From Sphingobacteriales bacterium (lineage in GTDB: Bacteria; Bacteroidota; Bacteroidia; Sphingobacteriales; Sphingobacteriaceae), in the NCBI GenBank assembly GCA_043763845.1, contig JAYULE010000185.1, forward strand, positions 10,853-74,852: a stretch of 64,000 nt of DNA, in the 5' to 3' direction. The notes under the pieces were generated by a model. It did no database searches, was not told the DNA's origin, and saw only the letters and a program-made list of their open reading frames with translations. This document shows positions 4,801-47,497 of this stretch, one piece after another. The position numbers and the translations under genes are program-made. Each line of letters begins with the position of its first letter. Positions within the stretch are counted from its first letter, which is position 1.

Positions 4801-6150
4801 AAATACGGAGGCACAGGTTTAGGCTTAACCATATCTAATAAATTATTAGAGTTTATGAATACTAAGCTTGAACTATTAAGCGAACCCGGCAAAGGCAGCA
4901 CTTTTTATTTTGATATAAAGCTACAAACTATCAATGGTAAAACAGATGATTGGGCAACAATAGATAACATAAAAAATATTTTGGTGGTTGATGACAACTT
5001 AAATAATAGGTTAATTGTTAAAAGTATGTTAGCATTAAGAGAAATTGAAGTTACCGAAGCTGCAAACGGTTTAGAAGCTTTGCAAATACTAGGGCAAAAA
5101 ATCACAAAATTTGATGTTATTTTAATGGATTACCACATGCCATATATGGATGGCTTAGAAACAATAAAAAAAATAAGAGAAAATTTTTATACATCTGCCG
5201 ATGAGCAACCAATAATGTTGCTTTACAGCTCATCTGATAACGAAACAATTATAAATGCCTGTAAAGATTTAAACGTAAATCACAGGCTTATGAAACCAAT
5301 AAAAATTAATGAATTATACAATTCGCTTTCTAAACTTAGAGTATTAAAATCTGAAGCTGAGCCAGAGGTGGTAACAACATCAAAGTTTAACAAAATGTTA
5401 GTACTTATTGCCGAAGATAACCCTGTTAATGCTCTTTTAGCAAAAAGTATTTTACTTAAAATAGCACCCGATGCTATAATAGTAGAGGTTGTTAACGGGC
5501 AAGAAGCCGTAGAATTTTGCAACCATAACGTACCCGATATGATTTTAATGGACATACAAATGCCTATTATGAATGGTTATGAAGCTACTAAACTAATTAG
5601 GGAAATACCTAAAAATGCTAAAACTCCAATTGTTGCTTTAACAGCAGGCAATGTAAAAGGCGAAAGAGAGAAATGTTTAAACGCAGGTATGTCCGATTTT
5701 GTTGCAAAACCTATTGTAGAAAACGATATTTTAGAATTGTTTAATAAGTGGCAAACACAATCTATTAAAATTGAAGGGTTAAACAATAACGAAAATGAGT
5801 TAGTAAAACAAGACAGCCAATTTGATATTAACATACTTAAAAATTTAATAGGCGATGAAGCAACTATAATAGCACAAGTTTTACAATTAGCTATAAAAGA
5901 GCTTAACCAATCATCAATATTATTAGATAAAATAGCCCAAGATGAAAATTTATCAGCCTTAAATTCTTTAGGCCATAAATTACATGGTACTGCTGTAACG
6001 GCAGGGTTACAAAATTTAGCTAATATTACACGTAGTTTAGAAAACACCATTGTATTTGACAAAAATTGTAACCAATTAATAAATAATGCACTTGTAGAAA
6101 TTGAAGTAGCTTTAAAACAAATTAGCATTTATTTAGAAAATGAAATTTAA
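1849..6150 (+). CDS. Hybrid sensor histidine kinase: GAF + multiple PAS/PAC + HisKA + HATPase + two receivers + HPt
   Basis: N-terminal GAF pattern (RIKALKGYHILDT ... FYAGYPL ... LGTLCVID). H-box SHEIRTPLNGVIG. N/G boxes LLSNAVKFT, DTGIGI, GGTGLGLTIS. Two receivers (ILVVDDN...ILMDYHMPYMDG and VLIAEDNPVN...ILMDIQMPIMNG...AKP). C-terminal HPt HKLHGTAVTAG. Confidence 0.9.
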   Translation: MPTPTNETQRIKALKGYHILDTANEIEFDRFTQLASLICEVPISLISLIDDDRQWFKSKIGLEVNETPRNLAFCQHAIMQNHIFEVEDATQDNRFKNNPLVTGDPTIRFYAGYPLVDPAGFALGTLCVIDRCTKILNPNQKKALQLLSEEVVSLIVERRQKEEIKYYEQLFLQSKDLVCIAGDDGYYKKINPAFTAILGWDEKTLLNTPYLDFVHPTDIEPTKILLQKLLSGEKTTSFLQKFKTSTHDYKFIEWVSTQEKSTGNIFAIGRDVTEEQIKEEKLKISETNFKSFFNNSQGLMCTHNLEGKFLSVNLSGAKLLGYTDIEILNLTLFDLIPIKHHAVLKKYLNKIKLFGKATGILAINNKNGTPSTWLFNNIVASDIKGEQYVIGNAIDITEKHQLELDLKRTKDLLEQTNNIANVGGWELDLQTNELYWTDITKKIHEVPSTFTPNLDNALKYYKPGENQTLINEAVNNAINFGTPWDLELQLITENKKEIWVRALGSVYVKNGKCVKVLGAFQDIDKQKKTELALAASQKKYKAFFNNSPIGISVDKLENGEFMQGNNAFLNMIGYTEDEYKSLNYKSITDKKYNDIEGVLINTLKDTGKYGPYEKEYIHKNGSIVPVVLNGISFIDEFGENLVYSTVENISERKNSEKIIEKERNRLKAFVQNAPAAVAMLDNNMVYIAASDKWKEDYKIPSEKNIIGQIHYNILTNISEEWKQLHQKCLKGEVIKKEEHVWRPAGWHTDMYIKWEARPWYELNGDIGGLILYTQDITTMCLQRDELNDAKLNAEQASSAKSEFLANMSHEIRTPLNGVIGFTDLVLKTQLTETQFQYLSIINQSANSLLSIVNDILDFSKIEAGKMELDIVKCNLHDLAGEAIDIVKFQAQSKGLEMLLNLPLEKNSSVLADSIRIKQIIINLLSNAVKFTQSGEVELKIIVLNSTEINKTFRISVSDTGIGINLDKQSKIFEPFLQEDASTTKKYGGTGLGLTISNKLLEFMNTKLELLSEPGKGSTFYFDIKLQTINGKTDDWATIDNIKNILVVDDNLNNRLIVKSMLALREIEVTEAANGLEALQILGQKITKFDVILMDYHMPYMDGLETIKKIRENFYTSADEQPIMLLYSSSDNETIINACKDLNVNHRLMKPIKINELYNSLSKLRVLKSEAEPEVVTTSKFNKMLVLIAEDNPVNALLAKSILLKIAPDAIIVEVVNGQEAVEFCNHNVPDMILMDIQMPIMNGYEATKLIREIPKNAKTPIVALTAGNVKGEREKCLNAGMSDFVAKPIVENDILELFNKWQTQSIKIEGLNNNENELVKQDSQFDINILKNLIGDEATIIAQVLQLAIKELNQSSILLDKIAQDENLSALNSLGHKLHGTAVTAGLQNLANITRSLENTIVFDKNCNQLINNALVEIEVALKQISIYLENEI

Positions 6151-6172: not shown

Positions 6173-8428
6173 TTACCATATACTTACTTCATCGCAACAA
6201 ATTGCTGGTTTTTTACGGCTATTTATACGCCACAAAGGTAACTGTGTAGGGCAAATTGCTGTTAATCGAATGTATTTTGCGGTAGTTTTAGGTAAAGTAA
6301 AATTTACTGATTTTATGTTTGCCGTATAGTCTTCATTGGTTGGGGTAATATTTTGATTGCCTATTTCTTTAAAATTAATGCCATTCATTGATGTTTCTAA
6401 AACAACATTGGTTGGTAAAAAAATATAATGCCTAGGGTCTAGCAAAAATTGGGTTTGTATTTGATTAAAGTTTTTTGCCTGGCTTAAATCTAAAGTGGCC
6501 ACCAAATTGGTGTTGTAAAAAAACAACCAATTATAACTAAAATCCAAATAGCCATTTACGTTATCTACTAAGGTTCGTTCATTTTTAGCCGGAAAATCAA
6601 TTGTAAATGGGTTTTTTAGTTTTACAATAGCATTTAGGGCTTTATTGGGGATAAATTTTTTAGTAAAAATTTCGTTCCATTCTGTTAAGTAAGCATCGGG
6701 GGTTTGGCCGCCTTCGGCCAGTTCTGTCACGCCAGCTAATTTACAATGGGCTACAAATTTGTTAACTTTTGCTGGCCATTTGGGGTTTATTATAACATTT
6801 TGGGTTTCATTATTTAGTATTTGATACCCAAATTTCTCGAATCCAAAAAATTTAGATTGTTGCAAAACCACAAAATCTAATCCTAACCTAACTTTTGTAA
6901 CTCTTTCTAAAAAATTGATTTGAGTTTCAACTGCAGCTTCGGCTTTATCTAATATTTGCGAATATGTATCCAATAATTCGGGCGTTAAATAATCAGAATA
7001 GTTGTTTATCGGGTTACCATAAATATCTAAATTTACGTTACTTGTATTTAAATTTTGATGCAACAGGTTTATATAATTATTTATAAATGGTGCTGCTTTG
7101 CCATAATAACCAATAAAAAAATCTTTTTCAATTTTTTCAACATCAATATTTGGGTTCCATAAAAGTTTAGCTTGCAAATAGCTATTATACTCGGCCATAT
7201 CGCCATAGGTATCGCCACTGCCCTGTACAAATACGCCTTTAACACCGGCATTAGCCAAAAAATTAAGGTTAGGTTTTAAGTTATTGTAATTTGGGAAAGG
7301 AGCTAAATAGTTGGTAAACTGGGTGCTATAATCCCATACAAAAATATTTTTTGTTAATGCACCCCAGCCATTCAAATTTTTTCGGAAAGTGGCTGCACTG
7401 TTTTCAGTATTTAAAGGTTTTGTTCGGTAGGCATCAATACTGCTTAAAATTGGGTAAACGTTTTTTAATGGTTTTGTTTTTGGAGGCTTTGCCGTGTAAG
7501 CGTAAGCCAAAGTTGTAAAATTGTTGTTTGGAAAATGTTTGGCTACACTATTTACAAACCGTATTAACGTACCTTGTGGTCCCCCTTCTTCGTCATCAAT
7601 TTTTTTGCAATTTGGGCAGGTACAAAAACCTTCATCGTCGTTTGCAGCTATAGACCAATATAGCGCATCGGGGTTATCGGCAATAGCCAACTTAAAATAA
7701 TTTACCGCTATTTTTTTTACTTCGGTATTGCTTAAACACAATTGCGTAGCTTGCCTTTGGCCATTTACTAGTGCAAAATAGCTTGGTTTGGTTTTAAAAT
7801 AAGTTTTTGGTGGGATAATTTTAAAAAAAGAATGCCCCCATAAACCCCATAAATCCTCGAACGATTGTAGCTTATGCCAATCTAAATATTCGGCATCACG
7901 AGATGCTGGGTAATAGGATTGCCGATACAAAAATTGCGGGTTTTGTAAATCCCATATTGGCGCTTGTACCGTAATTTGGCTATCATTTTTTATAATTGCT
8001 AACTGGTTTGCATACTTACGGCAACCCAAATAATTTTCTAAAAAATGATACACGCCATATACCACGCCTTTGCCACTACCGCCGCATATTACTAAACTAT
8101 TTGTATTGGTTGCTATAAAAAAACCGTCATTTTTTATTTTGGTAGGATTGTGTGTTTCGGCTGCTTGGGTACGCCCAACAAAAATGGCTGTTTTATTATT
8201 CCATTTATTTTCGGGTACTATGGGTAAAGTAGCTTGGCAAATTTTTTTAATATAAGTTTGCAAAATCAAAGCTGCTTTTTGCTCGGCAATTGTAGCAGTT
8301 GCTGGGACAATAATTTGGGTTTTGGCTGCCGAGTTTGCCACCAAAACCAAAGTTTTTTGGTCAGCTTTACATGCATCCGCGTTAAGCGATAAAAATAAAA
8401 ATAGTATAAAATTTAATACTTTTTTCAT
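6173..8428 (-). CDS. Secreted DUF4838-like glycoside-hydrolase-like protein with a C-terminal discoidin (F5/8 type C)-like domain
   Basis: Signal peptide MKKVLNFILFLFLSLNADA. The CTCPNCKKIDDEEGG segment and overall pattern match what I remember of DUF4838. The gap to the upstream TPR gene is only 11 nt, so it is probably the last gene of the operon. Confidence 0.55.
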   Translation of the reverse strand: MKKVLNFILFLFLSLNADACKADQKTLVLVANSAAKTQIIVPATATIAEQKAALILQTYIKKICQATLPIVPENKWNNKTAIFVGRTQAAETHNPTKIKNDGFFIATNTNSLVICGGSGKGVVYGVYHFLENYLGCRKYANQLAIIKNDSQITVQAPIWDLQNPQFLYRQSYYPASRDAEYLDWHKLQSFEDLWGLWGHSFFKIIPPKTYFKTKPSYFALVNGQRQATQLCLSNTEVKKIAVNYFKLAIADNPDALYWSIAANDDEGFCTCPNCKKIDDEEGGPQGTLIRFVNSVAKHFPNNNFTTLAYAYTAKPPKTKPLKNVYPILSSIDAYRTKPLNTENSAATFRKNLNGWGALTKNIFVWDYSTQFTNYLAPFPNYNNLKPNLNFLANAGVKGVFVQGSGDTYGDMAEYNSYLQAKLLWNPNIDVEKIEKDFFIGYYGKAAPFINNYINLLHQNLNTSNVNLDIYGNPINNYSDYLTPELLDTYSQILDKAEAAVETQINFLERVTKVRLGLDFVVLQQSKFFGFEKFGYQILNNETQNVIINPKWPAKVNKFVAHCKLAGVTELAEGGQTPDAYLTEWNEIFTKKFIPNKALNAIVKLKNPFTIDFPAKNERTLVDNVNGYLDFSYNWLFFYNTNLVATLDLSQAKNFNQIQTQFLLDPRHYIFLPTNVVLETSMNGINFKEIGNQNITPTNEDYTANIKSVNFTLPKTTAKYIRLTAICPTQLPLWRINSRKKPAICCDEVSIW

Positions 8429-8439
8429 TTAATTCTTAT

Positions 8440-11322
8440 TTAAAATTTTCGCAAAAAAGTAAAGTATAAATCAAACTGATTGCGGAAAATTGTATTGTTT
8501 ATTTTTTGGTTTATCCAATTTGCATTTACCCCTACCGATGTTCGGTATTTAAAAGTTTTTTGGTACCCTACTCCAACATTCCCACTTGCTACACCTTGTA
8601 ACGATGGAAATTGTATAATTGTACTTACATCATCGGGCGAATTACCAATCCCAGCGTTAAACGATACAAATTCTTGTGCATTATTCATATAATGCCTTCC
8701 TGTAAAGTTGGCCACTTGGTAAAAGTTGTTGTTTTGGTCTCGTACTAAAAAACCTCGTAAATTAAACCAAAAGTCTTTGTAAGTTTTTGCTGCCGATGCT
8801 ACAAATGAAACGGCTTTAAAGTTTATGTTTTTAAAATAACGTAAACCTACCTCGCCTTCCCAAGTTTTATTTAACATTCTAAAAGCCGAGTAGCGCAACA
8901 AAATTTGTGGAAAAACTATTTGGTTTGAAATTGCCGCCGTAGCATACGAATATAATTTGGGGTTATGGTTGTAGTACAACTCTAACTCGGCCTGTATGCC
9001 AGTTCCTAAGTTGCGGGCTGCGTAATTTACACGGCCAGCATAAGCACCTTTGCCTTTGTTTAAAAAATGGCGGTACTCAACAGTTGCAATATTAAAAGGT
9101 GCAATGTTCTCATCATCAAACCGGGTATTTAAATAAAACAAGCCAAACTGATCTTTATACGATTTACTTTTAAGCATTGCCGCATAATCTAAATTTGCCA
9201 ACGATGGGTTTATTTTTACTAGCGAATCTGCCGCTAAAATTGCTTCAGAATATAATTTTTGACCGGCAAAATATTCGGTGCGACGTAACAGAAAATATTC
9301 GCTTTTTGGGTGAGCTGCAATACCAGTATTTATGTATTTTAAAGTAGAATCGTTTTGGTTTTTATCTTTAAGCGTGTTTACGGTATAAATTAAAGCCATA
9401 GAATCGCTTGGCGAAACGCTTAACGCTTTTTGATACTCCAACAAAGCACTATCGGGCAAATTTACTTTTTGGTAAGCCCTACCTGCTGCAATAGTTTGCG
9501 AAATGTACGATTTTTTGTAAGCCGTTTTATACGGATACCTAACCATTAAGTTGTTACTTATGGTGTAAGCTTCTTTAAAGTTTTTCATATCCTCTAAAAC
9601 TGCCGATTTTTTTAGCAACAATTCTTTATTATCGGGATTGTTATTTAAAGCTGTATTTAAGTACCTTAATGCCTGATTGTAATTTTTACTGCCGCTTTCT
9701 AAATTTATGAGATAATTTAAAGCTTCCACGTTATTAGGTTGTTTGGCAATTACGTTAAGCAATTGTTCTCGGGCTTCATCAAAATCTTCGGTTTTCATAA
9801 AACCGCTGCCAGCTGCCATACTTTGATCAATATAAATACCCAAGTATTTGCTATTGTTTGGTTTTTTTTGCACCAGTTTTTTCGATACCACAATAGCATC
9901 TTCTACATTACCAGCATCAAACAAAATACTCGATTTTTTTAATAATAAATTTTCATCATTGGGGTAAAGTTTCAAACTCCTATCAATTGTTTCTAAAGCT
10001 TTATCGTATTTTTTTTGTGATACGTATATGTTACTTAGGTTGTTTAAAGCGTAGCTATTTCGGGCATCTAAACCTAATGCAATTTTATATTCTACAATTG
10101 CCGAATCGGGCATTTGTTGTGCTATAAAATCTTTGGCACTGGCCAGTTTAAGTTCTAATAAAGTTTGGCGGTATTTGGTATTGTTGCGGGCATACAACTT
10201 TTTTGCTATGTAACCTGCTTGTGTATATTTTTTTTGATAAGTTAAAATATCCACCTTGTTTGATAGTAAAAATTCTTCGTTGGGGTTATTTTTTAAAGTT
10301 TTGTTAATGTAACCTAAAGCGGTATTATATTGTTCGCGGGTAATGTTTAGCGATATAAGTTTGTTAATTATTTCTCGGTTGCCCGGAGATTTTTCGGCTA
10401 AACCTTCATACAAAGTGTAGGGGTCTTTATTGGCATAAAAACGAGCAGCAGTAAGCCTTAATTCATTTTCTCGTTTACGGGCATCGGAGTTTGGGTAAAG
10501 ATTGGCAGCATAGTTTAACACACTTAAAGCTTCGGCATATTGGTAGTTATCTTCTAAAATTGCCGCTTTTTTTAGTAACAATGGGTACGATTTTGGATTT
10601 TCTAACAAATTTTTGTTTAATCGTTCCTGAATAGCCTGCGTATTTCCGCTTTTATTGTAAGCGCTAAATAAATATTCGTTTGCTTCGCGGTTTTCGGGCT
10701 CAACTTCTAAAGCTTTTTGATAATGGGCAATGGCCGATAATGTATTTTTACGGCGCATATAATACAAGCCAGTAGTAATATGATGGTAAACATAGGCTCG
10801 CTCTACGGTGCTATCGTTATGAAAACGTTTTAATAAATAGTCGGCATGGTCGTTACCTTTGTAAATGTAACGGGCGGTATCTAAAATCGCTAATTTTTTC
10901 AACAACAAAAACTTATCAAGTGGGTAATAATACAATCCATCATCAACAAAACATAAAGCATCTTCAAAATGACCATTTTTAAGTTCAATATTTGTTGCAT
11001 AATAATAAGCATCAATATATCGTGGTTCTCGTTCTAAAACATCTTTAACTTCTATTAAGGCTAGCTTGTTTTGGTTTGTTAGCATATATAGTTTAGCCAA
11101 TAAAATTTGTGCATCCGAAAAATTATTGCGTTGGGATAATGATGCTTTTACCAATGTAATTGCTTTTTTGTAGTGTTTGGCTTGGGTTTCTAGTATGGCT
11201 TTATTGTACAATACATCGGCCTGGTTTTGAAAAATATTTTGTGCAGCTAAATTAAACGATGTTGTTAGCAAAAAACATACAAGTACAAGTTTCATTAATT
11301 TTATCTTTTTAAAATTTTCCAT
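8440..11322 (-). CDS. Outer-membrane exopolysaccharide export protein candidate: N-terminal TPR array plus C-terminal beta-barrel (PgaA/BcsC/YaiO-like architecture)
   Basis: I moved the start to the ATG at 11322 (MENFKKIKLMKLVLVCFLLTTSFNLAAQ, a signal peptide) because the longer ORF would run over the upstream stop at 11328. About 700 aa carry TPR-like repeats. The last ~250 aa are beta-strand-like and end with an aromatic residue (...LYFTFLRKF). Confidence 0.65.
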   Translation of the reverse strand: MENFKKIKLMKLVLVCFLLTTSFNLAAQNIFQNQADVLYNKAILETQAKHYKKAITLVKASLSQRNNFSDAQILLAKLYMLTNQNKLALIEVKDVLEREPRYIDAYYYATNIELKNGHFEDALCFVDDGLYYYPLDKFLLLKKLAILDTARYIYKGNDHADYLLKRFHNDSTVERAYVYHHITTGLYYMRRKNTLSAIAHYQKALEVEPENREANEYLFSAYNKSGNTQAIQERLNKNLLENPKSYPLLLKKAAILEDNYQYAEALSVLNYAANLYPNSDARKRENELRLTAARFYANKDPYTLYEGLAEKSPGNREIINKLISLNITREQYNTALGYINKTLKNNPNEEFLLSNKVDILTYQKKYTQAGYIAKKLYARNNTKYRQTLLELKLASAKDFIAQQMPDSAIVEYKIALGLDARNSYALNNLSNIYVSQKKYDKALETIDRSLKLYPNDENLLLKKSSILFDAGNVEDAIVVSKKLVQKKPNNSKYLGIYIDQSMAAGSGFMKTEDFDEAREQLLNVIAKQPNNVEALNYLINLESGSKNYNQALRYLNTALNNNPDNKELLLKKSAVLEDMKNFKEAYTISNNLMVRYPYKTAYKKSYISQTIAAGRAYQKVNLPDSALLEYQKALSVSPSDSMALIYTVNTLKDKNQNDSTLKYINTGIAAHPKSEYFLLRRTEYFAGQKLYSEAILAADSLVKINPSLANLDYAAMLKSKSYKDQFGLFYLNTRFDDENIAPFNIATVEYRHFLNKGKGAYAGRVNYAARNLGTGIQAELELYYNHNPKLYSYATAAISNQIVFPQILLRYSAFRMLNKTWEGEVGLRYFKNINFKAVSFVASAAKTYKDFWFNLRGFLVRDQNNNFYQVANFTGRHYMNNAQEFVSFNAGIGNSPDDVSTIIQFPSLQGVASGNVGVGYQKTFKYRTSVGVNANWINQKINNTIFRNQFDLYFTFLRKF

Positions 11323-15837: not shown

Positions 15838-16786
15838 AAAGCTTTTTAAGTTTAATAAAATTTAACAAAAAGTTAAAAAATCTATTTCATGGATGATTTA
15901 ATATGTACTTATTTTTTTTAATTATGTTTCAAAATTATTAATATTTAGGGTAAAAAATGCCATTTGTATATTTAATATCAATAAATACTGCATTATGTAG
16001 TAGCTAAAAGGGCGCAAAAGTTAAAAATATGTTAATTTAACATTAAAACAAATAAATAGTGGCAAAATTTATATCGTTAAATCAAAAAAAATACATTTTT
16101 AATTAATTTAATTTCCAAATTTTAGATTAACAAAATTTTTTTATGAGTCAATATCTGTATCCTTAAGTCAATAGTTTTTACATACCTTAATTTTGAAAAT
16201 TGTAAGAATGTAATGATAACTAAAATCGAATTTTGTATTCCACACTATAATATCCATAAAATTCAAAGTATTAAAAAAAAAACGAAACGGTTTTGACATA
16301 CGATATTCATCAGCTTCAAATTTTTACGCATCTTTAAAACACCAAACATTTATAAATAAATTTGAATAATAAAACGATATATATATACACTAAGTACCCA
16401 AATTAAATATAAAATAAAAATTACTAAATGGTGAAATATTTTTTTATTGATGTTTTTAATATAGGTTATAATTAAAACCAAAACGTGTGAAAAAATAAAA
16501 AATTTTTAACTGTTTTGTTCATAAACTGGGATGCAAAATTTCGAACTTCTTTTATTAAATTAGAAAAATATTTTGCAGGTATAAAATTTGATAAATGTTA
16601 TTAATGGGGATTTTAAATTTTATTTTATGACAAATTCTTGTAAATAGTGGAATTTATTTTACACAATAGTTTTCTTATAATCAGTATATTAAAAATATTA
16701 TCAAAACATTTACTTTAACTTTTACCTAATTTCAACATTAACAATTACTAATATATTTAGTTTAGCCAAATAACGTCTTAAATTTT

Positions 16787-19615: not shown

Positions 19616-20051
19616 AATCTTAAATTCAACAAATAATTACAACACGGCATAAGGCAAACATAGAAAACCGGCGGGCGGCTTAATACAAATTAGCGCCTTC
19701 AATTGTGTTTATGGTAAAGAATCAGTGCTAAGGGGTATAAATAAAGAAGTTTTAAATTTACTATTTAGTTGATATGAGACCGCTGGTTTATGTCGATAAT
19801 TTTGGCGTAATGGACATTTATAGTGTTTTATGGGAGACCTTAGTTCCATGTAAATAAAAATGGTAGTCTATTTTTTGCAGAATTTTGTAGAGTTAAATAT
19901 ACTATAGACTTTTTATATTTTCCAATGTTAAACCGTCTCATTCGCTTACAAAATATTATACTATATTATATTAATATTGCATATCAAACACATTATACAA
20001 AACATCGAATATTATATGTGTTTAAACATCTATTGCTCAGCTTAACTATTT

Positions 20052-20156
20052 CTTAACATAATTGTAACTGTTTGTTTACGAATATCTTAAATACTAAAAT
20101 TTGCAATTTTTTTTCTTAAAACGCTTGCATTTTTGTTTTACAACAATTACATTTAG
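20052..20156 (+). promoter_or_regulatory. Locus promoter/operator module, copy A
   Basis: CTTAACATAAttGTAACT, then gTTTGTTTACgAAt (20070-20083), 44 nt, CTTGCAT (TTGCAT at 20125-20130), 17 nt, TACATTTAGCC (TACATT at 20148-20153). The ATG follows 71 nt later. See copies B and C. Confidence 0.6.
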
Positions 20157-20223
20157 CCATTAAAACATTTAATTATAAATTAAGTAAAATAATAAAATTA
20201 GTTTTTACCCTAAAAAATAAATT

Positions 20224-20778
20224 ATGTCAATTACAATTCCCACCCAATACCAGTGGCTAAACCAAGAAGGTGGCCCTAAAATGCTTGTTGAAGCACTAAA
20301 ATTGTATGGTACGCTTGAAGTGACGGGCCATGGTAATAACTCTACCATTATGCAATGGGCAAAAGAAGTAGGCGGCAAAGTTGCCGATGTTTACAAAGCC
20401 GATAAAATACCTTGGTGTGGCTTATTTATGGCTGTAATAGCCAAACGTAGTGGTAAAATAGTACCTAAAGACCCACTTTGGGCATTAAACTGGGGCACAT
20501 TTGGTACCGCTACTAATACCGCAATGCTTGGCGATACCCTTGTTTTTGTTCGTCGTACTCTTGAAGGTGCAAAAGCTGGCCACGTTGCCGTATATATAGG
20601 CGAAGATGAAACTGCCTACCACGTTATAGGCGGCAACCAAGACGATAAAGTTAGCTTTACCCGTATGGCTAAAACCAGGCTTTATGCTATACGTAGGCCA
20701 CAATACAATGTACAACCAGCTAATGTGCGGGTAATAAAATTGTTGCCCAAAGGCGGGTTAAGTAATAATGAGGGGTAG
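20224..20778 (+). CDS. NlpC/P60-CHAP superfamily cell-wall hydrolase (TIGR02594-like, phage/T6SS-associated type), no signal peptide
   Basis: Candidate catalytic Cys in KIPWCGLFMA and His in AGHVAVYIGED, then YHVIGGNQDDKV. The overall pattern matches what I remember of the TIGR02594 family. Confidence 0.6.
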   Translation: MSITIPTQYQWLNQEGGPKMLVEALKLYGTLEVTGHGNNSTIMQWAKEVGGKVADVYKADKIPWCGLFMAVIAKRSGKIVPKDPLWALNWGTFGTATNTAMLGDTLVFVRRTLEGAKAGHVAVYIGEDETAYHVIGGNQDDKVSFTRMAKTRLYAIRRPQYNVQPANVRVIKLLPKGGLSNNEG

Positions 20779-20888
20779 GGATTTACTTGAATTATAAACA
20801 CAATTAACTTAGTTAGGTGTAAAAGCACTAGTGCATTTGTAAATTTTAGTGTGCCGATTTTAAGAGCGTTAACGATTGAGGCGGCATA

Positions 20889-20936
20889 CTTTTTATCAAT
20901 TGCCGTTGGCTTAAGCCAACCGCAATTGATAAAAAG
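20889..20936. repeat. 48-bp near-perfect palindrome between the hydrolase and patatin genes
   Basis: CTTTTTATCAATTGCCGTTGGCTT | AAGCCAACCGCAATTGATAAAAAG. The arms complement each other at 23 of 24 positions with no loop. No T-run follows. Confidence 0.85.
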
Positions 20937-20996
20937 ATATAGCCGAAAGCGTGTTTAAACGCCCAAATTATAAAAAATATTAATTCTCGAAACAAA

Positions 20997-22013
20997 ATGA
21001 AAAAAATAATTTCTATTGATGGTGGTGGTATACGAGGCATTATACCAGGCCAAGTGTTAGTGGCATTAGAAAAAAAACTACAAATAAAAACAGGAAACAC
21101 CGATGCTCGTATAGCGCATTATTTCGATTTTTTTGCAGGAACCAGTACTGGGGGTATTTTAACCTGCCTGCTACTTTGTCCCGATGAAACAAACCCTTTA
21201 ATGCCAAAATTTACGGCTAAGCAAGCGGTAGATTTATATATGAATAATGGAAATAAAATTTTTGATGCCTCGAGTTGGCAAAAATTTACACAAGGTTTAT
21301 TTGATGAAAAATACCCTAGTGCCCCTATTGAAAAAACTTTATTAAAATACTTTGGTAATACAAGGCTAAGTAGCCTCCTTAAGCCATGCCTAATAACTGC
21401 TTATGATATTATGGAGCGCAAAACTCATTTTTTTGCCCAGCATGATTATAATAGAAAAGGCGACGGTGGCGATTTTTTAATAAGAGATGTATGTAGGGCA
21501 ACATCGGCTGCGCCCACTTATTTTGAAACTGCGTTAATAAAATCTATTAGTGGGGTTTCTTACCCTTTAATAGATGGTGGCATTTTTGCCAACGACCCAG
21601 CATTGTGCGCCTACTCCGAAGTGCGTAACGCCAAAGGTTTACCTACTGCAAAAGATATGTTTATTCTTTCGCTTGGTACTGGAAGCGAAAGTAAATCCTA
21701 CAATTATAATAAAGCAAAAGATTGGGGTGCAGTAGGCTGGATAAAACCTGTAATTGATATTATGATGTCGGCATCGGCCGAAACCACCCATTACCATTTG
21801 CTAAAAATGTTTGCAGCAAATGGCAATCAAAATAACTATATGCGCATACAACCTAAAAGTTTAAGCAATGCAAAACCAGATATGGACGATGCCAGCCTAA
21901 ACAACTTAATGGCTTTAAAAGAAGTAGGCATTAAAACAGCTGAAAATTGTAACAGCGATTTAGATATTATTGTGGATATATTAATGGAAGGCGAGGATAA
22001 GGTTGAATATTAA
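20997..22013 (+). CDS. Patatin-like phospholipase
   Basis: Oxyanion box DGGGIRG, nucleophile elbow GTSTGG (GxSxG) and catalytic Asp in IDGGIFANDP. No signal peptide. Confidence 0.9.
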   Translation: MKKIISIDGGGIRGIIPGQVLVALEKKLQIKTGNTDARIAHYFDFFAGTSTGGILTCLLLCPDETNPLMPKFTAKQAVDLYMNNGNKIFDASSWQKFTQGLFDEKYPSAPIEKTLLKYFGNTRLSSLLKPCLITAYDIMERKTHFFAQHDYNRKGDGGDFLIRDVCRATSAAPTYFETALIKSISGVSYPLIDGGIFANDPALCAYSEVRNAKGLPTAKDMFILSLGTGSESKSYNYNKAKDWGAVGWIKPVIDIMMSASAETTHYHLLKMFAANGNQNNYMRIQPKSLSNAKPDMDDASLNNLMALKEVGIKTAENCNSDLDIIVDILMEGEDKVEY

Positions 22014-22178
22014 TTGAACAACGGGCTTTTGGACAACCAGCTTCCATACTTTCGTTTTCCGCCTCGGGCAGCCAGCCTCGGGATTTCTTAACAAGGCAAA
22101 AAAGCTTAAACCCAACACCAATTTTGCCCTGTTTTCGCTACCCCTTGTCCATCTCTCCGTTGGGGGTTGGTAGGCCAA

Positions 22179-22284
22179 CTTAACATAAACGTAACTATTT
22201 GTTTACAAATAAATTACACTTTTAAACACCTAATATTTTTATTTAAAAAAGCTTGCAATTACCAAAACCAAAATTTACATTTAT
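22179..22284 (+). promoter_or_regulatory. Locus promoter/operator module, copy B
   Basis: CTTAACATAAacGTAACT, then ATTTGTTTACAAAT (22197-22210), 45 nt, CTTGCAA (TTGCAA at 22253-22258), 17 nt, TACATTTATCC (TACATT at 22276-22281). The ATG follows 64 nt later. Confidence 0.6.
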
Positions 22285-22344
22285 CCATAAATATAGCCTA
22301 TAACTCATCTTATTTTTAATTAAAATTCCTTAAATACCAAACCT

Positions 22345-23175
22345 ATGCCACACACCCAATGCCTAGTTACCCCTGCTTTTTCTATTGTAGGCACACAACA
22401 AATAATAAACCAACCAGCCAGTTTTTCTTTTGAGTTCGACAGTGTTGAAGACCAAGCCTTAATATTGGCCTACCAATGGTATGTAAATGGTAATTTAGTA
22501 ATCAATAAAAATCAACCCACATTTACCGAGCAAATGCAATTAGGTACTTATACTATTGGTGGCAGATTATTAACAGCGGAAGGCTGGAGCGGTATAAAAA
22601 CAATATTTTTTGAAAAATTAGAACAGAATATTACACCCATTGGTAATTTTACTTTTATGGCAGTTTATTTTAAATGGCTTGAAGGTGCAGGTACAGATTT
22701 AGATATTAAAGTGGGTTTTGAAAATACGGGTACAATTTACGATAAAAAATATGCTGGTTATAATCAGATTGCTAATATGCAAAATGGATACACATTGCCC
22801 GCAAATATCACTCCACAAACTGATGCTTATTTATGGTGGGGATCAGATAGTACAGGTACTGCTGGTACAGAATCTGTATTAATTGGTGTCCAAAAATTTA
22901 TTGCCGATAATCCTTTATCCCTAAATATAGTTGAAATTGCATTGTATGCTACTTGGTTCGGTGCACCAAATTCGGGCATATTTACAGTGGAGTTAAAGAC
23001 TTATTTAAATGGTACTATGGCCAAAAATGGTACTGTTTTTGAAAACACTGGCGGTACAGCCCCGTTTACTAATTCTAAAACAATTACTACTTTAAACAAT
23101 AAGCCTAATTACTATAAAATAGGCATCATAAAATATAACAAAACAAGCAATTTGGCACAATTACAAACTTTATAA
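22345..23175 (+). CDS. Hypothetical protein (276 aa) with an N-terminal Ig/PKD-like segment
   Basis: Long ORF directly downstream of module B. YQWYVNGNLV resembles a PKD/Ig-like strand pattern. I recognised no other motif. Confidence 0.5.
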   Translation: MPHTQCLVTPAFSIVGTQQIINQPASFSFEFDSVEDQALILAYQWYVNGNLVINKNQPTFTEQMQLGTYTIGGRLLTAEGWSGIKTIFFEKLEQNITPIGNFTFMAVYFKWLEGAGTDLDIKVGFENTGTIYDKKYAGYNQIANMQNGYTLPANITPQTDAYLWWGSDSTGTAGTESVLIGVQKFIADNPLSLNIVEIALYATWFGAPNSGIFTVELKTYLNGTMAKNGTVFENTGGTAPFTNSKTITTLNNKPNYYKIGIIKYNKTSNLAQLQTL

Positions 23176-23232
23176 AAATAATTTTCTAAAACATAAACAA
23201 TACACTTATTTAATCCCATAACCAATAAACTT

Positions 23233-25278
23233 ATGAAACACAAAAACCAAACCATCAAAAAAATTAAATTAGCACTAACATTTACCCTATTTGCATTTGC
23301 TAACTTAAACAATGCAACCGCACAATGGTCTAGCAACCCATCTGTAAACACCCCTATTGCCAACACCGCACTTGCCGAATACGACCACGAATCTATACCC
23401 GATGGCAGTGGGGGAATAATAGTAGTTTGGGCAGTTAGCGATGAAAATTTAGGTACCGATGTTATAAAAGCCAAAAGAGTATCGGCCAGCGGTGTAACTA
23501 TATGGGGAGGTACAAATGGCATCCAAATAACCAACTCTACCCGTAACCAAGCCTTTCCTCATTTGGTAACCGATGGTAATGGCGGGGCAATAATTACTTG
23601 GCTTAATTTTGATGTAGATGCAGAACTTACCGCAACAGAGGCTGATGTTTACGCTCAACGCATTAACGCTAGTGGCACACTTCTTTGGGGTAACGGTGGG
23701 CTTATAATAAATGCCACCCCTGGCAACCAAGTATTTTCAAGCATTGTTAGCGATGACGCATCGGGTGCTATTATTGTATGGTCCGATGAAGCCCAAGAAG
23801 CCATTTACGCACAACGAGTGAATGCCAATGGCCAAATTATTTGGGCTGCCAATGGCAAAAATATATATACTGCCTTAATAACTAAAACTATTGGTAATAG
23901 TCAAATTTTTAAGGGTATAAATGGCAATTTTACCGTAGTTTTTAATACCGTTTTCGAAGAGGTTAGAAACAACCAAACCAAAACTAAACCAAACGAATTT
24001 TACCTACAAACCATAAACGCAAACGGCCAAAACCAATTGGCTACCGCAATACAATTGTACAACTTTCCTACCGATTATGATATAGAAGACATTATAAGCG
24101 ATAATAACGGCGGTTTATTCAGCACCGTTTCTTACCAAACTAATACAACAGTAAGTTTATTTTTACAAAAATATTCGGCCTTAGGTATTCCTCAATTTGC
24201 GGGCACCTATGGCCTAACAGTTGACAATAGTATAGCAAAAAGCCAAACATACCCCCGTTACATTGCAAACACCAATATAATTACTGACAATACCGGTGGT
24301 GCTTTAATAGGCTGGACGGATGTACGAAACAGTATTACAGGTTTTTATGTACAACGTTTTAACAATACAGGCACAAAATTATTTAATGCCAACGATGTAA
24401 GTGTTTTTGGAAATAATTTGGATATAAACTCAGATGCACCCAGTGCAATTATTGATAGCGATGGGAATTATGTATATATAACGCCAAAAAGCAGTACTAC
24501 GTTAGGCAACGGAGCACTATACACCCAAAAAGTAAGCACCACAGGTACAACCTTATGGACAGCAGGCGGTGTATTGGTAAGCAACTCGGCAGGCAATAAA
24601 TCTAGTCCTACATTAACCCTTACGGGCAATAAAATGATAGCCCTTTGGGAAGATTTTAGAGCAAGTATACCGGCTGGTTTCAATTCGGATATTTATGCCC
24701 AAACTATAAACAGCAACGGAACCCTACCGGTTACCCTTACCACATTTACCGCCCTTTACGGGGATGATAAAGTACGTTTAAATTGGCAAACAGCAACCGA
24801 AATTAATAACCAAGGTTTTGATATAGAACGAAGTACCGACGGACTAATATTTTCAAAAATAGCTTATGTAAAAGGTAATGGAACTACCAATGTGCCTCAA
24901 AACTATAACCATAACGATGCTAATTTAATTTCACAAACCCAATACCTATACTACCGCTTAAAACAAGTAGATAGCAATGGCGAATTTGAATATTCAAACA
25001 TTGTATCAGTAAAAATACCGCAATTAAACAACGCAACTTTTAGCATTTACCCCAACCCAGTAACAGCTAAACAGTTTAATGTAAAATTAGCAGGTTTACC
25101 AAAAGGTAATTACCAAACAAGTATAACCAATATGGCAGGTATAAATGTTAAAAAAGCTATCATTTTTTGCGATGATACCTCAAACCAAGTTGTAAATGTG
25201 GATTTACCCAAAGGGATGTATAATTTAGAAATCACATCTGCAAATTACCGTCAAGTACAAAAACTGTTGGTAGAATAA
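23233..25278 (+). CDS. Secreted repeat (propeller-like) protein with a T9SS type-A C-terminal sorting domain
   Basis: Signal peptide (...FANLNNATAQ). Repeats of the form G-A-I-I-V/T-W...D-V/I-YAQR-I/V-NA-x-G...W. The C-terminus FSIYPNPVTAKQFNVKL...GMYNLEITSANYRQVQKLLVE is typical of T9SS CTDs. Confidence 0.8.
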   Translation: MKHKNQTIKKIKLALTFTLFAFANLNNATAQWSSNPSVNTPIANTALAEYDHESIPDGSGGIIVVWAVSDENLGTDVIKAKRVSASGVTIWGGTNGIQITNSTRNQAFPHLVTDGNGGAIITWLNFDVDAELTATEADVYAQRINASGTLLWGNGGLIINATPGNQVFSSIVSDDASGAIIVWSDEAQEAIYAQRVNANGQIIWAANGKNIYTALITKTIGNSQIFKGINGNFTVVFNTVFEEVRNNQTKTKPNEFYLQTINANGQNQLATAIQLYNFPTDYDIEDIISDNNGGLFSTVSYQTNTTVSLFLQKYSALGIPQFAGTYGLTVDNSIAKSQTYPRYIANTNIITDNTGGALIGWTDVRNSITGFYVQRFNNTGTKLFNANDVSVFGNNLDINSDAPSAIIDSDGNYVYITPKSSTTLGNGALYTQKVSTTGTTLWTAGGVLVSNSAGNKSSPTLTLTGNKMIALWEDFRASIPAGFNSDIYAQTINSNGTLPVTLTTFTALYGDDKVRLNWQTATEINNQGFDIERSTDGLIFSKIAYVKGNGTTNVPQNYNHNDANLISQTQYLYYRLKQVDSNGEFEYSNIVSVKIPQLNNATFSIYPNPVTAKQFNVKLAGLPKGNYQTSITNMAGINVKKAIIFCDDTSNQVVNVDLPKGMYNLEITSANYRQVQKLLVE

Positions 25279-25380
25279 GCAATGGTTTTTAACCGAAGAT
25301 TTGTTTTTTACCCGTACTTAACAGTATATAGTAATAACACACCTCCCTAAAGTTTTAACTGTGGCTTTATTGTTTTCTAA

Positions 25381-25413
25381 AAGGAAGTCTTCCCTCCATG
25401 GGAAGCCTTCCTT
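25381..25413 (+). other. Hairpin downstream of the T9SS cargo gene (possible terminator or insulator)
   Basis: AAGGAAGTCTTCCC-TCCAT-GGGAAGCCTTCCTT forms a 14-bp stem with one mismatch. No T-run follows. Confidence 0.35.
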
Positions 25414-25486
25414 AAAACAACAAACTACCCCTAACGCCACGCCATTTTTGTCTTACAAACAGCTGACTTTAGCTTGCAAAACCAAA

Positions 25487-25510
25487 CACCCCCTTTGGGG
25501 GCCGGGGGGA
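25487..25510 (+). repeat. C5/G5 hairpin element (dispersed ~25-nt family), abutting module C
   Basis: CACCCCCTTTGGGGGCCGGGGGGA. Same family as the copies at 35284, 35385-35616, 46211 and 47473. Confidence 0.75.
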
Positions 25511-25605
25511 CTTAACCATTTGTTTACAAATAATTTACATGTTGAAACATCTATTAATTATTTCTTAAATCTCTTGCAATTACAGAAAACTACATATACA
25601 TTTAG
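25511..25605 (+). promoter_or_regulatory. Locus promoter/operator module, copy C
   Basis: CTTAAC, then ATTTGTTTACAAAT (25518-25531), 45 nt, CTTGCAA (TTGCAA at 25574-25579), 17 nt, TACATTTAGCA (TACATT at 25597-25602). The ATG follows 102 nt later. Confidence 0.6.
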
Positions 25606-25703
25606 CAAACATTTACAAACACTTAAACATAGTCCGAAGTTCGTTTCCAATTGCGATTTTGTGTAGGAGATAAAAATTTTTAATTGATACTAAGAAAAAC
25701 ATA

Positions 25704-27578
25704 ATGGCATATCATTTTTTTGCAGATATTCAAAATTTAAACATTCAAACTGTTAATGCTTTTGGGCCGAGTGCCAACTCTACAATAAATACAATTGAGA
25801 ATGAAAATTTTTTAGTAACCAGTAAACATACTGCAACAGCAGATACTAACGCTATAGCAGTTTGTAATGGACAAATATTGGTACAACAACAAACGGAAAA
25901 TTCAGAACTTTTAAATATTGTATTTAAACCCCTACCCACACAACCGTTTAATTTTCCTAAAATCAAGTATTTTATATATAAAGGCATTAAGAAAGATAGT
26001 TTAATAGCTGCAACAACTACAGTCCTTGCCGCAAAAGGTAATAACGATTTAGTAGACGCTATTTGGGCAGCTTTTGAAACAACTAACACTACAGGTAGCC
26101 CAAGCCAAGCAATTTTAGGCTTAGATACTGCCATAAATAATTTGCCGGAAAGCCAAACAATCGAAGATGTATTTTCGACTATTTACCCCGAGGTACAGTT
26201 TTGGCATATAAATGCGGGTAACACTATAGGTAAATTTGATAAAGATGCAATAGGTTTTGAAATTGTTTTAGATACACTTTTTTACCAACCTACATTGGCA
26301 TTGGCTAGAAACTCAGCTACCTTTATTAGGGCAAAAACATTATCAACCACACCGCTCCAAAAAGATTTTTTTGAACATTGGAACGATAAAGAAAGTATCC
26401 TAAATTTTATAGACCCTTGTGCATTTTTTGGTAGTTTTTATGCTGATAAATTAAGCGTAATTAGCGCAAGCCAAAAAAGTAAATGGAAAGGGGAAGATTT
26501 ATATAATAACCTTCTAAGTAAATTTTCTAATAAAAATAAATGTTATATAGACATTAGAAATGAATTTAATTTTTCGCTTAATTATTTCAAAAATTATGGA
26601 TTAAGCCCAACCAATAATTTTACTGAAATTAAAATAAAAAAGGGCGATACAGCCTTCGCCTCAATTGATTATTATGCCAATTCATGGCCAATCTTAATCT
26701 TGGATAATACTGATTTTGCTACCTCAACTGCTAACCACCAAAGTTTTAGTTTACAGTTGCCTTCTGGTAACGGGGACAACCCTGAACCTATAATTTATTT
26801 TAGCAAGGCATATAATAATTCTGATACATTCCCTGATGAATATGACAAACAAGAAAAATTTAAACCTTTAGCTGTAGCAAATAATTTTTCCGATGAATTT
26901 AATATAGGCTTACCTTGGATAAACGGTAATTTAATAAGCTCTTATGTGCAAATTAAATACTGCAAAAGGAAAAGCGAAGAAGTTTTGCCACTGCCCCTAA
27001 ATACCCAAATGCGTAAAGGGGATAACTTTGACTGTCTTTTTAGTCCAAAAATAAATTTCAACTATAACAATTCACTTACACCAACTAAATTTTGTAACGA
27101 AAGTTTCTATATAGATTTAAGGACAATACATGGTTATGATGCTGTTTTTGTACCTAGTATTTCATTTGATTTAGATAAAGTAATATTGTTTGCCAACCTA
27201 GATGCGTACAACGAAAATACTACTAAAAAATATCTTCTCCCGTTTGAACTTAACAGTGAATTTAAAAATGTAAATACTGATTTTAAATTTATAGATAATT
27301 TAATATTAAAATATCAAAACCAACCACTTTCTGAAATTGGAGATAATGTCTTAATTACTTTTACGCATCCACAATGGAGTACAATTATTGGTTATAATGA
27401 ATTTGAAGGTAACTACCCTGTTTTTATAAGTATTGTTGAAAATAGACTAGAAAATATTAACAATCAAAGCTATACTGTTTTTGATATTATATTAAAAGGA
27501 TATAAAATTAATGGAAATAAGATTGAGGTTACATCACATAATTTAAATTTTAATATTTATTCTTTAAACTTAAATTAA
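25704..27578 (+). CDS. Hypothetical protein (624 aa), no signal peptide
   Basis: First ORF after module C. Its stop overlaps the next start (TAATG at 27576-27580). I recognised no motif. Confidence 0.6.
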   Translation: MAYHFFADIQNLNIQTVNAFGPSANSTINTIENENFLVTSKHTATADTNAIAVCNGQILVQQQTENSELLNIVFKPLPTQPFNFPKIKYFIYKGIKKDSLIAATTTVLAAKGNNDLVDAIWAAFETTNTTGSPSQAILGLDTAINNLPESQTIEDVFSTIYPEVQFWHINAGNTIGKFDKDAIGFEIVLDTLFYQPTLALARNSATFIRAKTLSTTPLQKDFFEHWNDKESILNFIDPCAFFGSFYADKLSVISASQKSKWKGEDLYNNLLSKFSNKNKCYIDIRNEFNFSLNYFKNYGLSPTNNFTEIKIKKGDTAFASIDYYANSWPILILDNTDFATSTANHQSFSLQLPSGNGDNPEPIIYFSKAYNNSDTFPDEYDKQEKFKPLAVANNFSDEFNIGLPWINGNLISSYVQIKYCKRKSEEVLPLPLNTQMRKGDNFDCLFSPKINFNYNNSLTPTKFCNESFYIDLRTIHGYDAVFVPSISFDLDKVILFANLDAYNENTTKKYLLPFELNSEFKNVNTDFKFIDNLILKYQNQPLSEIGDNVLITFTHPQWSTIIGYNEFEGNYPVFISIVENRLENINNQSYTVFDIILKGYKINGNKIEVTSHNLNFNIYSLNLN

Positions 27579-35283: not shown

Positions 35284-35308
35284 TCCCCCTAACCCCCGAA
35301 GGGGGGAT
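35284..35308 (-). repeat. C5/G5 hairpin element, reverse orientation
   Basis: TCCCCCTAACCCCCGAAGGGGGGAT is the reverse complement of the 47473 copy (ATCCCCCCTTCGGGGGTTAGGGGGA). Confidence 0.8.
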
Positions 35309-35350
35309 TGAAAGCGTTAATAAAAAGAATATAAAAATGAAAACAATACA

Positions 35351-35616
35351 TATAAACATAACATATTCACACACTCCTTCGTTTACACCCCCTTCGGGGG
35401 CTGGGGGGATTATAAACACAACACATTCACACGCTCCTTCATTCACACCCCCTTCGGGAACTGGGGGGATTATAACCACCACACATTCACCCACTCCTTC
35501 CTCTACACCCCCTTCGGGAACTGGGGGGATTATAACCACCACACATTCACCCACTCCTTCGTTTACACCCCCTTTGGGGGCTGGGGGGATTACACCCCCT
35601 TCGGGGGCTGGGGGGA
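35351..35616 (+). repeat. Tandem array of a 60-bp unit (about 4.4 copies), each carrying a C5/G5 hairpin, ending 17 nt before the 1669-aa ORF
   Basis: The period is exactly 60 nt (copies at 35361-35420, 35421-35480 and 35481-35540, then a truncated copy and an extra hairpin). The unit is ACACATTCACnCnCTCCTTCnTTnACACCCCCTTCGGGnnCTGGGGGGATTATAAnCACn. Confidence 0.9.
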
Positions 35617-35633
35617 CTAAACTTTAACCCACT

Positions 35634-46210: not shown

Positions 46211-46234
46211 ATCCCCCTTTGGGGGCTAGGGGGT
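46211..46234 (+). repeat. C5/G5 hairpin element
   Basis: ATCCCCCTTTGGGGGCTAGGGGGT. A degenerate copy lies at 46150-46170 (ATCCCCATTTTGGGGTAGGGT). Confidence 0.75.
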
Positions 46235-46348
46235 AATTCGATGGCTCGAGGCATAATAAAAAATATTTTTTTAACCCTTACAATAAATCTCAACTTTAAA
46301 AGTTAATATCATTGATAAAAATATCCTAACCCTCTAAAAATTAAAACT

Positions 46349-47439: not shown

Positions 47440-47472
47440 TAACTAACACCTTTCTCCTCCCGTTCTTCGTAC

Positions 47473-47497
47473 ATCCCCCCTTCGGGGGTTAGGGGGA
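47473..47497 (+). repeat. C5/G5 hairpin element
   Basis: ATCCCCCCTTCGGGGGTTAGGGGGA. It is followed by two GCCCG-rich direct repeats (47504-47555). Confidence 0.8.

Follow-up and report, generated by a model that had tools for sequence, protein, structure and literature searches.

A promoter module repeated before three adjacent transcription units of a Sphingobacteriales bacterium: candidate activator-dependent sigma-A promoters of a putative effector island

A 64-kb stretch of the genome of a Sphingobacteriales bacterium (contig JAYULE010000185.1, a metagenome scaffold; termed here the window) carries three tandem transcription units, A, B and C, whose first genes are the open reading frames (ORFs) beginning at 20224, 22345 and 25704. 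Each of these ORFs is preceded by a copy of one module of about 105 nt, and all three copies lie on the same strand, as established by reading of positions 19800 to 26000 and by pattern searches. Every copy contains a core promoter and, upstream of it, a set of boxes comprising a palindrome, an array of T(T/A)AC hexamers and a second conserved element that we call box 2. An original prediction, made from the sequence alone, had proposed a promoter/operator region common to the three units, and the analysis described here supports that proposal: the repeat is a real cis-regulatory module. The genes and module parts are as follows.

20014–20033, + strand: box 2 of module A, ATATGTGTTTAAACATCTAT, a dyad with 8/10 agreement, upstream of the hexamer array and centred at about −136
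20041–20083, + strand: hexamer array of module A, with CTTAAC at 20041, CTTAAC at 20052, GTAAC at 20064 and GTTTAC at 20074 (11-nt period)
20124–20155, + strand: core promoter of module A, CTTGCAT (−33 region), 17 nt, TACATTTA (−7 box); predicted start at about 20160
20224–20778, + strand: unit A under module A (184 aa, TIGR02594), possibly together with 20997–22013 (patatin)
22179–22233, + strand: operator region of module B, with T(T/A)AC slots at 22179, 22191, 22201, 22213 and 22223, the palindrome and a degenerate box 2
22218–22233, + strand: the degenerate box 2 of module B, ACACTTTTAAACACCT
22252–22283, + strand: core promoter of module B, CTTGCAATTAC, 13 nt, TACATTTA; predicted start at about 22288
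22345–23175 and 23233–25278, + strand: unit B under module B (276 aa; 681 aa with a type IX secretion system (T9SS) sorting signal)
25447–25479, + strand: degenerate remnant upstream of module C, TTTGTCTTACAAA, 14 nt, TTGCAA, without a −7 box
25511–25552, + strand: operator region of module C, with CTTAAC at 25511–25516, the 14-mer ATTTGTTTACAAAT at 25518–25531 and box 2 at 25537–25552
25537–25552, + strand: box 2 of module C, ACATGTT-GA-AACATCT
25573–25604, + strand: core promoter of module C, CTTGCAATTAC, 13 nt, TACATTTA; predicted start at about 25609
25704–46135, + strand: unit C, the core operon, under module C (624, 216, 256, about 2083–2100, 1669, 696 and 952 aa)

Pattern searches, self-BLAST and nhmmer agree on the three copies. 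Pairwise BLAST of the intergenic regions aligned A with B over 113 nt (70%, E 1e-8), B with C over 95 nt (77%, E 2e-16) and A with C over 109 nt (69%, E 2e-5). A profile built from the three copies matched only these copies in the window, and no further copy was found with it in the flanks of the same genome that could be taken from other assemblies of the organism (about 5.5 kb upstream and 8 kb downstream). The module is thus private to the locus, as had been predicted, over about 77 kb of this genome (the 64-kb window plus about 13 kb of flanks). The spaced pattern TTGCA-N18-TACATTTA is exact only at 20125, 22253 and 25574, the places where the promoter hexamers had been located, and any other match in the 64 kb needs two mismatches. 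The palindromic 14-mer ATTTGTTTACAAAT is likewise exact at 22197 and 25518, and has two mismatches at 20070. From the end of the −7-like box to the ATG the distance is 68, 61 and 99 nt for the ORFs at 20224, 22345 and 25704, and the similarity between copies ends with that box, the leaders and the downstream proteins being unrelated. Within the module, invariant columns are clustered in blocks (16/19 in the operator, 6/6 in CTTGCA and 8/8 in TACATTTA; P = 0.02), and the 17-nt spacer is constant in length with just 2/12 columns identical among the copies.

Direct reading also bore out that copies A and B have 25 of 28 nt in common between CTTAAC and GTTTAC, and that a degenerate site lies at 25447–25479; a hairpin resembling repetitive extragenic palindromic (REP) elements separates this remnant from module C. 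Three of the proposed regularities had to be amended. CTTGCAA does not occur in every copy, since copy A has CTTGCAT. The spacer, given before as 45 or 44 nt, measures 41, 41 and 40 nt between the 14-mer and CTTGCA. Finally, the spacing of the CTTAAC box is not nearly identical throughout: the distance to the 14-mer is 1 nt in copy C and 12 nt in A and B.

The core promoter can be read in the terms of the organism's own phylum. The housekeeping sigma factor of Bacteroidota (sigma-A) recognizes a −33 TTTG and a −7 TAnnTTTG element, in which T−12, A−11, T−8, T−7, T−6 and G−5 are nearly invariant and nn is never G (PMC6847099; PMC2483708). Its −33 element is normally weakly conserved, and the classical sigma-70 consensus is not used (PMC6847099). 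The module sequence CTTGCA-N18-TACATTTA is equivalent to TTG-N20-TA-CA-TTT-A, which places TTG at about −35 to −33 and the −7 box at −12 to −5. TTG-N20-TA is present in all copies, as CTTG in the window and as TTTG in two more distant relatives (L068 and L069, described below); a −33 element is expected about 19–21 nt upstream of the −7 box. The −7 box TAC(A/T)TTTA agrees with TAnnTTTG at 7/8 positions and at 5/6 of the near-invariant ones (TA at −12/−11 and TTT at −8 to −6), nn being CA or CT and thus without G. A 60–100-nt leader that is A-rich ahead of the ATG is a further likeness to sigma-A promoters. The sole systematic departure from the −33/−7 consensus is A for G at −5, which is seen in all six promoters; the −33 region also differs in being extended and unusually conserved (TTGCAATTAC).

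The original prediction had likened these sites to sigma-70 promoters and called them unlike the Bacteroidota housekeeping promoter. Compared with TTGACA-N17-TATAAT, TTGCAA scores 5/6 and TACATT 4/6 with a spacing of 17, and a generic promoter scanner listed none of the sites; judged by its letters, the module seems to be one that happens to fit both descriptions. The second half of the claim is not borne out, as TTG-N20-TAnnTTTA has the −33/−7 geometry and 7/8 positions of the −7 box. A dedicated sigma factor, which the prediction had suggested as one option, is unnecessary, though conceivable, because TTG-N20-TAcaTTTA fits the housekeeping geometry. The host has Bacteroidota traits (T9SS sorting domains and gldA/F/G-like genes), and several genes of the window, dnaN among them, have a canonical TAnnTTTG box in front.

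Orthologous promoters were found in relatives. The 276-aa protein led to the nearest relative located, a Sphingobacteriales metagenome-assembled genome (MAG; GCA_004294495.1, loci L066/L067) with 84% protein identity, in which the genes for the 184-aa protein, the patatin and a 272-aa protein are syntenic. Module A is present there (nhmmer E 1e-15), with CTTGCAT (7/7) and TACATTTAGC (10/10) identical and the operator part at 84%; the third codon positions of the adjacent gene are just 67% identical. The core of box 2 is identical as well, and the 14-mer, which reads ATTTGATTACAAAT in L066, keeps the palindrome with one change. Promoter B is gone in L066, where the −33/−7 boxes are deleted and a decayed operator-like stretch is left. 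Two other loci, L068 and L069, encode orthologues of the first protein of unit B with 64–66% protein identity. Upstream of these genes box 2 (GTTTAAACATCTA), an AT-rich spacer, TTGCAATTAC, 13 nt and TACTTTTA are retained; the region from −76 to −5 is 83% identical to window copy B, and the leader is about 65% identical with gaps. The 10-nt block TTGCAATTAC is 100% conserved among B, C, L068 and L069.

On the strength of these two comparisons, purifying selection acts on the core promoter and box 2 across lineages, some lineages do without the palindrome, and promoter B is ancestral rather than a recent duplication. The nn position of the −7 box changes from CA to CT in relatives and TA..TTTA stays fixed, which is the behaviour that would be expected of a genuine −7 element. 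Constraint on the −33/−7 boxes is seen in orthologous promoters from three lineages.

Beyond these relatives the module was not recovered. The pattern TTTGTTTAC-N44-48-CTTGCA-N18-TACATTT gave 0 matches in public genome, metagenome and viral contigs (the public data searched comprised 596 Gb of genomes, Joint Genome Institute (JGI) metagenomes, viral contigs and phage genomes), and a pattern combining box 2 with the promoter gave 0 matches in metagenomes. BLAST of the module against phage genomes found no match, and nhmmer did not find the module in 884 kb from 53 related islands with homologues of the 624-aa protein. In these data the sequence of the module is lineage-private. An activator of phage-late type, one of the regulators first suggested, finds no support in the viral contigs or phage genomes.

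Could the core promoter be the −35/−10 signature of a dedicated alternative sigma factor, TTGCAATTAC-N13-TAC(A/T)TTTA, with the upstream boxes secondary? The invariance of A at −5 in six promoters from three lineages speaks for it, since the mapped sigma-A promoters of Flavobacterium almost always have G there (PMC6847099), and so does the complete conservation of TTGCAATTAC in B, C, L068 and L069, which is unlike the weak sigma-A −33 element. However, seven of the eight −7 positions and the −33/−7 spacing match sigma-A exactly, and copy A and its orthologue carry TTGCATT rather than TTGCAATTAC. The window, its flanks and the surroundings of the orthologous islands examined contain no sigma or anti-sigma gene; beside those islands there are response regulators. 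Typical motifs of extracytoplasmic function (ECF) sigma factors have the form AAC ... CGT, which the module does not match. A sigma-54 promoter (TGGCAC-N5-TTGCW) was also considered and rejected because the GG dinucleotide (−24) is missing 10–11 nt upstream of TTGCA, where the letters are TCTTAAAACGC, TTAAAAAAGC or CTTAAATCTC. We therefore regard a dedicated sigma factor as unlikely.

The boxes upstream of the core promoter are arranged in phase. CTTAAC is one unit of an array of T(T/A)AC hexamers with an 11-nt period, and in copy C it occupies the slot held by GTAAC in A and B, one slot nearer the palindrome. With the predicted start set 12 nt after the T of TACATTTA, the hexamers of copy B stand at −104, −93, −82, −71 and −61. 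Those of copy C are the last four of these slots, and those of copy A fill four slots two helical turns (22 nt) further upstream, the imperfect 14-mer GTTTGTTTACGAAT at 20070–20083 lying inside the array. Chains of at least four WWAC units spaced by 10–11 nt occur only at the three modules when both strands of the window are searched (0.72 expected).

The palindrome, centred at about −84, is a perfect 7-2-7 repeat in copy B (TATTTGT-TT-ACAAATA, 22196–22211), with agreement of 7/7 in B, 6/7 in C and 5/7 in A. The 14-mer taken alone is weak evidence and not above chance, because palindromes of that size are common in this AT-rich DNA: the window contains 47 perfect 6-2-6 palindromes and 15 perfect 7-2-7 palindromes, the latter attributed to composition alone, and 57 matches to the 14-mer at up to three mismatches against 59 expected. 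The role of key operator given to the palindrome in the original prediction is not supported, as the palindrome is imperfect in copy A, changed in the orthologue of that copy, and absent from the promoters of L068/L069, which keep box 2 in its place. Box 2, which had been overlooked, has the consensus ACAyGTTkAAACAyCT. Its core GTTTAAACATCTA is exact at 20020, has one mismatch at 25541 and two at 22220, and the centre of the box is at about −64 in B, where it is degenerate, and in C.

These data also bear on whether the copies are no more than a repeat that was dispersed or duplicated and has no regulatory role in common, be it a miniature inverted-repeat transposable element (MITE) or REP-like sequence, an invertible promoter or a selectively neutral remnant of segmental duplication. 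REP-like GC hairpins abut modules B and C and are scattered over the window, a degenerate remnant precedes copy C, and the loss of promoter B in the close relative shows turnover. Set against this are the low copy number (three in about 77 kb) and the placing of every copy at promoter distance and in the direction of the gene, next to genes that are not paralogues; the absence of terminal or flanking inverted repeats; the block-wise conservation with a spacer of fixed length; the persistence of the core promoter where proteins have diverged to 64% identity; and the lack of any match in the public genomes, metagenomes, viral contigs and phage genomes. This explanation is very improbable. Two specific forms of it were rejected: a REP or MITE family, given three promoter-proximal copies in about 77 kb and no flanking inverted repeats, and an invertible promoter of the Bacteroides type, given that no inverted repeats of at least 10 nt bracket the promoter in all copies. 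The only tyrosine recombinase of the window is a XerC/D-like gene at 56813.

The signalling genes of the window and flanks encode receiver-only proteins and hybrid kinases only, and the earlier remark that no regulator gene is visible in the locus holds for the window and for 13 kb of flanks. Several orthologous islands have duplicated upstream modules of their own, with sequences unrelated to the window module. The order in L021 is an integrase, a first copy of a module, an operon whose last genes encode a HisKA_3 kinase and a NarL/GerE response regulator, a second copy of the module, and the core operon; this module (7085–7133 and 9693–9741) contains the perfect 8-2-8 palindrome ATAGTAGT-TT-ACTACTAT and a further, imperfect one. 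L045 has a NarL-type regulator and, between it and the core gene, tandem perfect TAGCGTAA-TT/AA-TTACGCTA sites (8-2-8; 1783–1827). In L006 a LytTR regulator lies between two copies of a 42-nt module (5531–5572 and 7160–7201) made of 10-nt direct repeats with 21-nt phasing, and NarL-type regulators are found near the core operon in L055 and L059. Duplicated operators served by a dedicated two-component regulator are thus a recurrent design in this island family. Intergenic blocks of 75–300 nt are also repeated before several genes near the core operon in L050 (380–5487), L057 (9477–19227) and L062 (3586–9423), those of L050 preceding three genes that are possibly paralogues.

Two classes of operator resemble the upstream boxes. 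Dimers of NarL recognize 7-2-7 inverted repeats, and activation is possible from −67.5 or −77.5 (PMC7419079). The window palindrome, centred at −84, has the inverted heptamers and 2-bp gap of NarL/FixJ operators (LuxR-type helix-turn-helix; −45 to −78), and it has in common with L021 and L045 an N-2-N layout with a TT/AA centre upstream of the same core operon. It differs in that no NarL-type or GerE-domain gene lies within about 77 kb here, that the half-site is unrelated to the NarL TACYYMT, and that the palindrome is absent from the orthologous promoters of L068/L069. The hexamers resemble the tandem direct repeats of the OmpR/PhoB/PhoP/PmrA class, there being four to five of them (CTTAAC, CGTAAC, GTTTAC, ATTTAC and GAAAC) with an 11-nt period between −61 and −115; at least three similar hexamers with 10–11-bp phasing upstream of the −35 region are found at all three modules. 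Here the differences are that the occupied slots vary, that A is 22 nt further upstream than C, and that the cognate regulator is putative. As a lead only, the hexamers resemble the PhoP (T/G)GTTTA-N5 and PmrA CTTAAT-N5 boxes. The TTTACATGTTGAAACATCTA of copy C may likewise resemble the E. coli OmpR C1 site, a lead that does not enter the evidence.

We assign a probability of about 0.6 to the reading that activator-dependent sigma-A promoters co-regulate the putative effector genes with the core operon. The three modules would be paralogous Bacteroidota −33/−7 promoters that place the three tandem units under one signal. A at −5 would make the −7 box sub-optimal, and a transcription factor encoded outside the window would occupy the boxes between −60 and −115 and recruit RNA polymerase from a class-I-like position. 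This regulator would most likely be a two-component response regulator of NarL/LuxR or OmpR type. The putative effector genes, for an NlpC/P60-like hydrolase and a patatin lipase, would in this way be co-expressed with the core operon of the island.

Several observations weigh against this reading. No DNA-binding regulator gene was found in the window or its 13-kb flanks, and the invariant A at −5 together with the strongly conserved TTGCAATTAC could mean a different sigma specificity. None of the boxes keeps a constant place from promoter to promoter: box 2 of copy A has shifted to −136. The palindrome of that copy, moreover, lacks compensatory changes. In L068/L069 both the palindrome and the hexamer array are absent, and REP-like GC-rich DNA is found in their place. 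Separate promoters are also dispensable, because L066 has lost promoter B.

The same boxes could instead be repressor operators or sites for nucleoid or architectural proteins, with constitutive sigma-A promoters that are silenced until de-repression. Palindromes and phased AT-rich T(T/A)AC tracts are typical of such sites too, and the island looks mobile elsewhere (integrases in L007 and L021; a tRNA-fragment repeat in L040), such islands often being silenced. Yet the boxes lie at about −60 to −115, clear of the −33/−7 region, the usual site of repressor action; they accompany a sub-optimal −7 box like that of activator-dependent promoters; and the response regulators of the orthologous islands belong to classes that commonly activate. 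Silencing is accordingly improbable, and we infer activation by a bound regulator.

The genes under the activator-dependent promoters so proposed are for the most part without informative relatives. Searches of the island proteins against Pfam, NCBIfam, PHROGs and PADLOC gave only a sub-threshold DUF6603 match, the patatin/CapV-like protein, TIGR02594 and the T9SS tail. The 184-aa protein is the TIGR02594 member and is NlpC/P60-like; the domain has been reported as a type VI secretion system (T6SS) effector that degrades peptidoglycan (PMC13055248). The patatin gene, for a CapV-like phospholipase, begins 218 nt past it. Its product scored 183 bits (cut-off 200) against the model for the cyclic GMP–AMP (cGAMP)-activated phospholipase of cyclic oligonucleotide-based antiphage signalling systems (CBASS) and E 1e-67 against the PADLOC phospholipase effectors, and no cyclase or other CBASS gene lies near it. 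The 218-nt gap contains a long hairpin (20879–20945, CTTTTTATCAATTGC ... GCAATTGATAAAAAG); in L066 the gap is just 38 nt.

The proteins of the core operon gave no informative family, defence or phage match, and searches of the Protein Data Bank (PDB) with their sequences were empty. The match to DUF6603, weak and sub-threshold, is in the protein of about 2100 aa, and the 256-aa protein has just four homologues. The AlphaFold2 (AF2) model of the 624-aa protein is confident (predicted local distance difference test (pLDDT) 90, predicted template modelling score (pTM) 0.92), and Foldseek found no fold match for it in the PDB. Elsewhere, homologues of this protein carry C-terminal Peptidase_M23, Peptidase_C15 or DUF6402 extensions, a pattern typical of polymorphic effector carriers. 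A literature search on DUF6603, DUF6402 and the operator string returned nothing relevant.

The core operon is conserved in Mucilaginibacter, Pedobacter, Dawidia, Kordia and others, and occurs also in Blastocatellia, Myxococcaceae and Alphaproteobacteria (related loci L005–L008 and L011–L063). It often adjoins integrases (L007, L021) or a tRNA-fragment repeat (L040), which suggests that it lies on a mobile island. In L040, an alphaproteobacterial MAG, a tRNA gene and a partial tRNA repeat (8330–8430 and 9376–9476) bracket the region upstream of the core gene; this looks like an attachment-site (att) duplication and would imply an integrated mobile island. Transposase genes of the insertion sequence (IS) type IS200/Y1 lie near the island in the window (49646–50098) and also in an unrelated orthologous locus, L021 (1815–2270).

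The gene content leads us to infer an effector-delivery system. As where T6SS clusters are co-regulated with effector islands, putative antibacterial enzymes stand under the module of the core operon, and the first protein of the operon occurs elsewhere with polymorphic C-terminal enzyme domains (M23, C15, DUF6402). Unlike T6SS-type systems, the island has no recognizable components of T6SS, extracellular contractile injection systems (eCIS), toxin complexes (Tc) or phage tails, and its 624-aa protein has, as noted, no PDB fold match; a role as an apparatus is putative. A wider proposal is more speculative, and we put it forward as a doubtful possibility: the module may mark the regulon of an undescribed effector-delivery or toxin system widespread in Bacteroidota, Acidobacteriota, Myxococcota and Alphaproteobacteria. 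The 624-aa family, which supplies the first protein, would have a novel fold and polymorphic C-terminal enzyme domains, accompanied by giant DUF6603 and 1669-aa proteins. Cargo would be wired in by lineage-specific, copy-pasted modules read by island-specific two-component regulators, the regulator having moved off the island here.

Other sequence features of the window include the REP-like hairpins, two of which adjoin modules and likely serve to delimit or terminate the transcription unit before them.

25489–25510, + strand: REP-like GC hairpin CCCCCTTTGGGGGCCGGGGGGA, abutting module C
22155–22178: degenerate copy of the REP-like hairpin, abutting module B

The motif CCCCCTTYGGGGG(C/T)T(G/A)GGGGGA has eight intergenic matches against 0.04 expected, and REP-like sites lie at 22155–22178, 25489–25510, 35293–35625, 46213–46238, 47270–47500 and 62019–62031. 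About five tandem REP-like units of about 61 nt separate the genes for the 2100-aa and 1669-aa proteins. Upstream of ruvB (47150–47440), tandem repeats of about 21 nt (ccacctgcaaccttaatattg) and a duplication with an 84-nt period are interleaved with REP-like hairpins. Another array of T(T/A)AC hexamers, with a 6-nt period (TTACTT TAACTT TTACCT ... TAACAA TTACTA), lies at 16704–16768 upstream of a gene for a 942-aa HExxH/beta-propeller protein. Next to it comes TATATTTAGTTTAGCCA, a stretch that includes a −7-like box (A at −5) and has TTTAGCCA in common with module A; the site could belong to the regulon as a remote fourth member, or the likeness may be due to chance. Neither an Rfam scan nor a tRNA scan found anything in the window.

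The control of several operons by one regulated promoter is a textbook situation, and the module is no new kind of transcription signal; what it serves looks like a small co-regulated gene set. It does supply a testable set of cis-elements, namely box 2, the palindrome with the T(T/A)AC array, and TTGCA-N18-TAC(A/T)TTTA, with TTGCAWT-N15/16-TACNTTTA, GTTKAAACAYCTA and ATTTGNTTACAAAT as patterns for regulon searches. These elements offer a way to identify the regulator of a large, conserved and completely uncharacterized island, and the signal that induces it. The promoters also provide natural cases, within Bacteroidota, of sigma-A promoters whose −5 position is A, a trait that may mark dependence on an activator. 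Through them, two putative antibacterial enzymes, a peptidoglycan hydrolase and a patatin lipase, are tied to the core operon, and the island itself is a more interesting object than the module that controls it.

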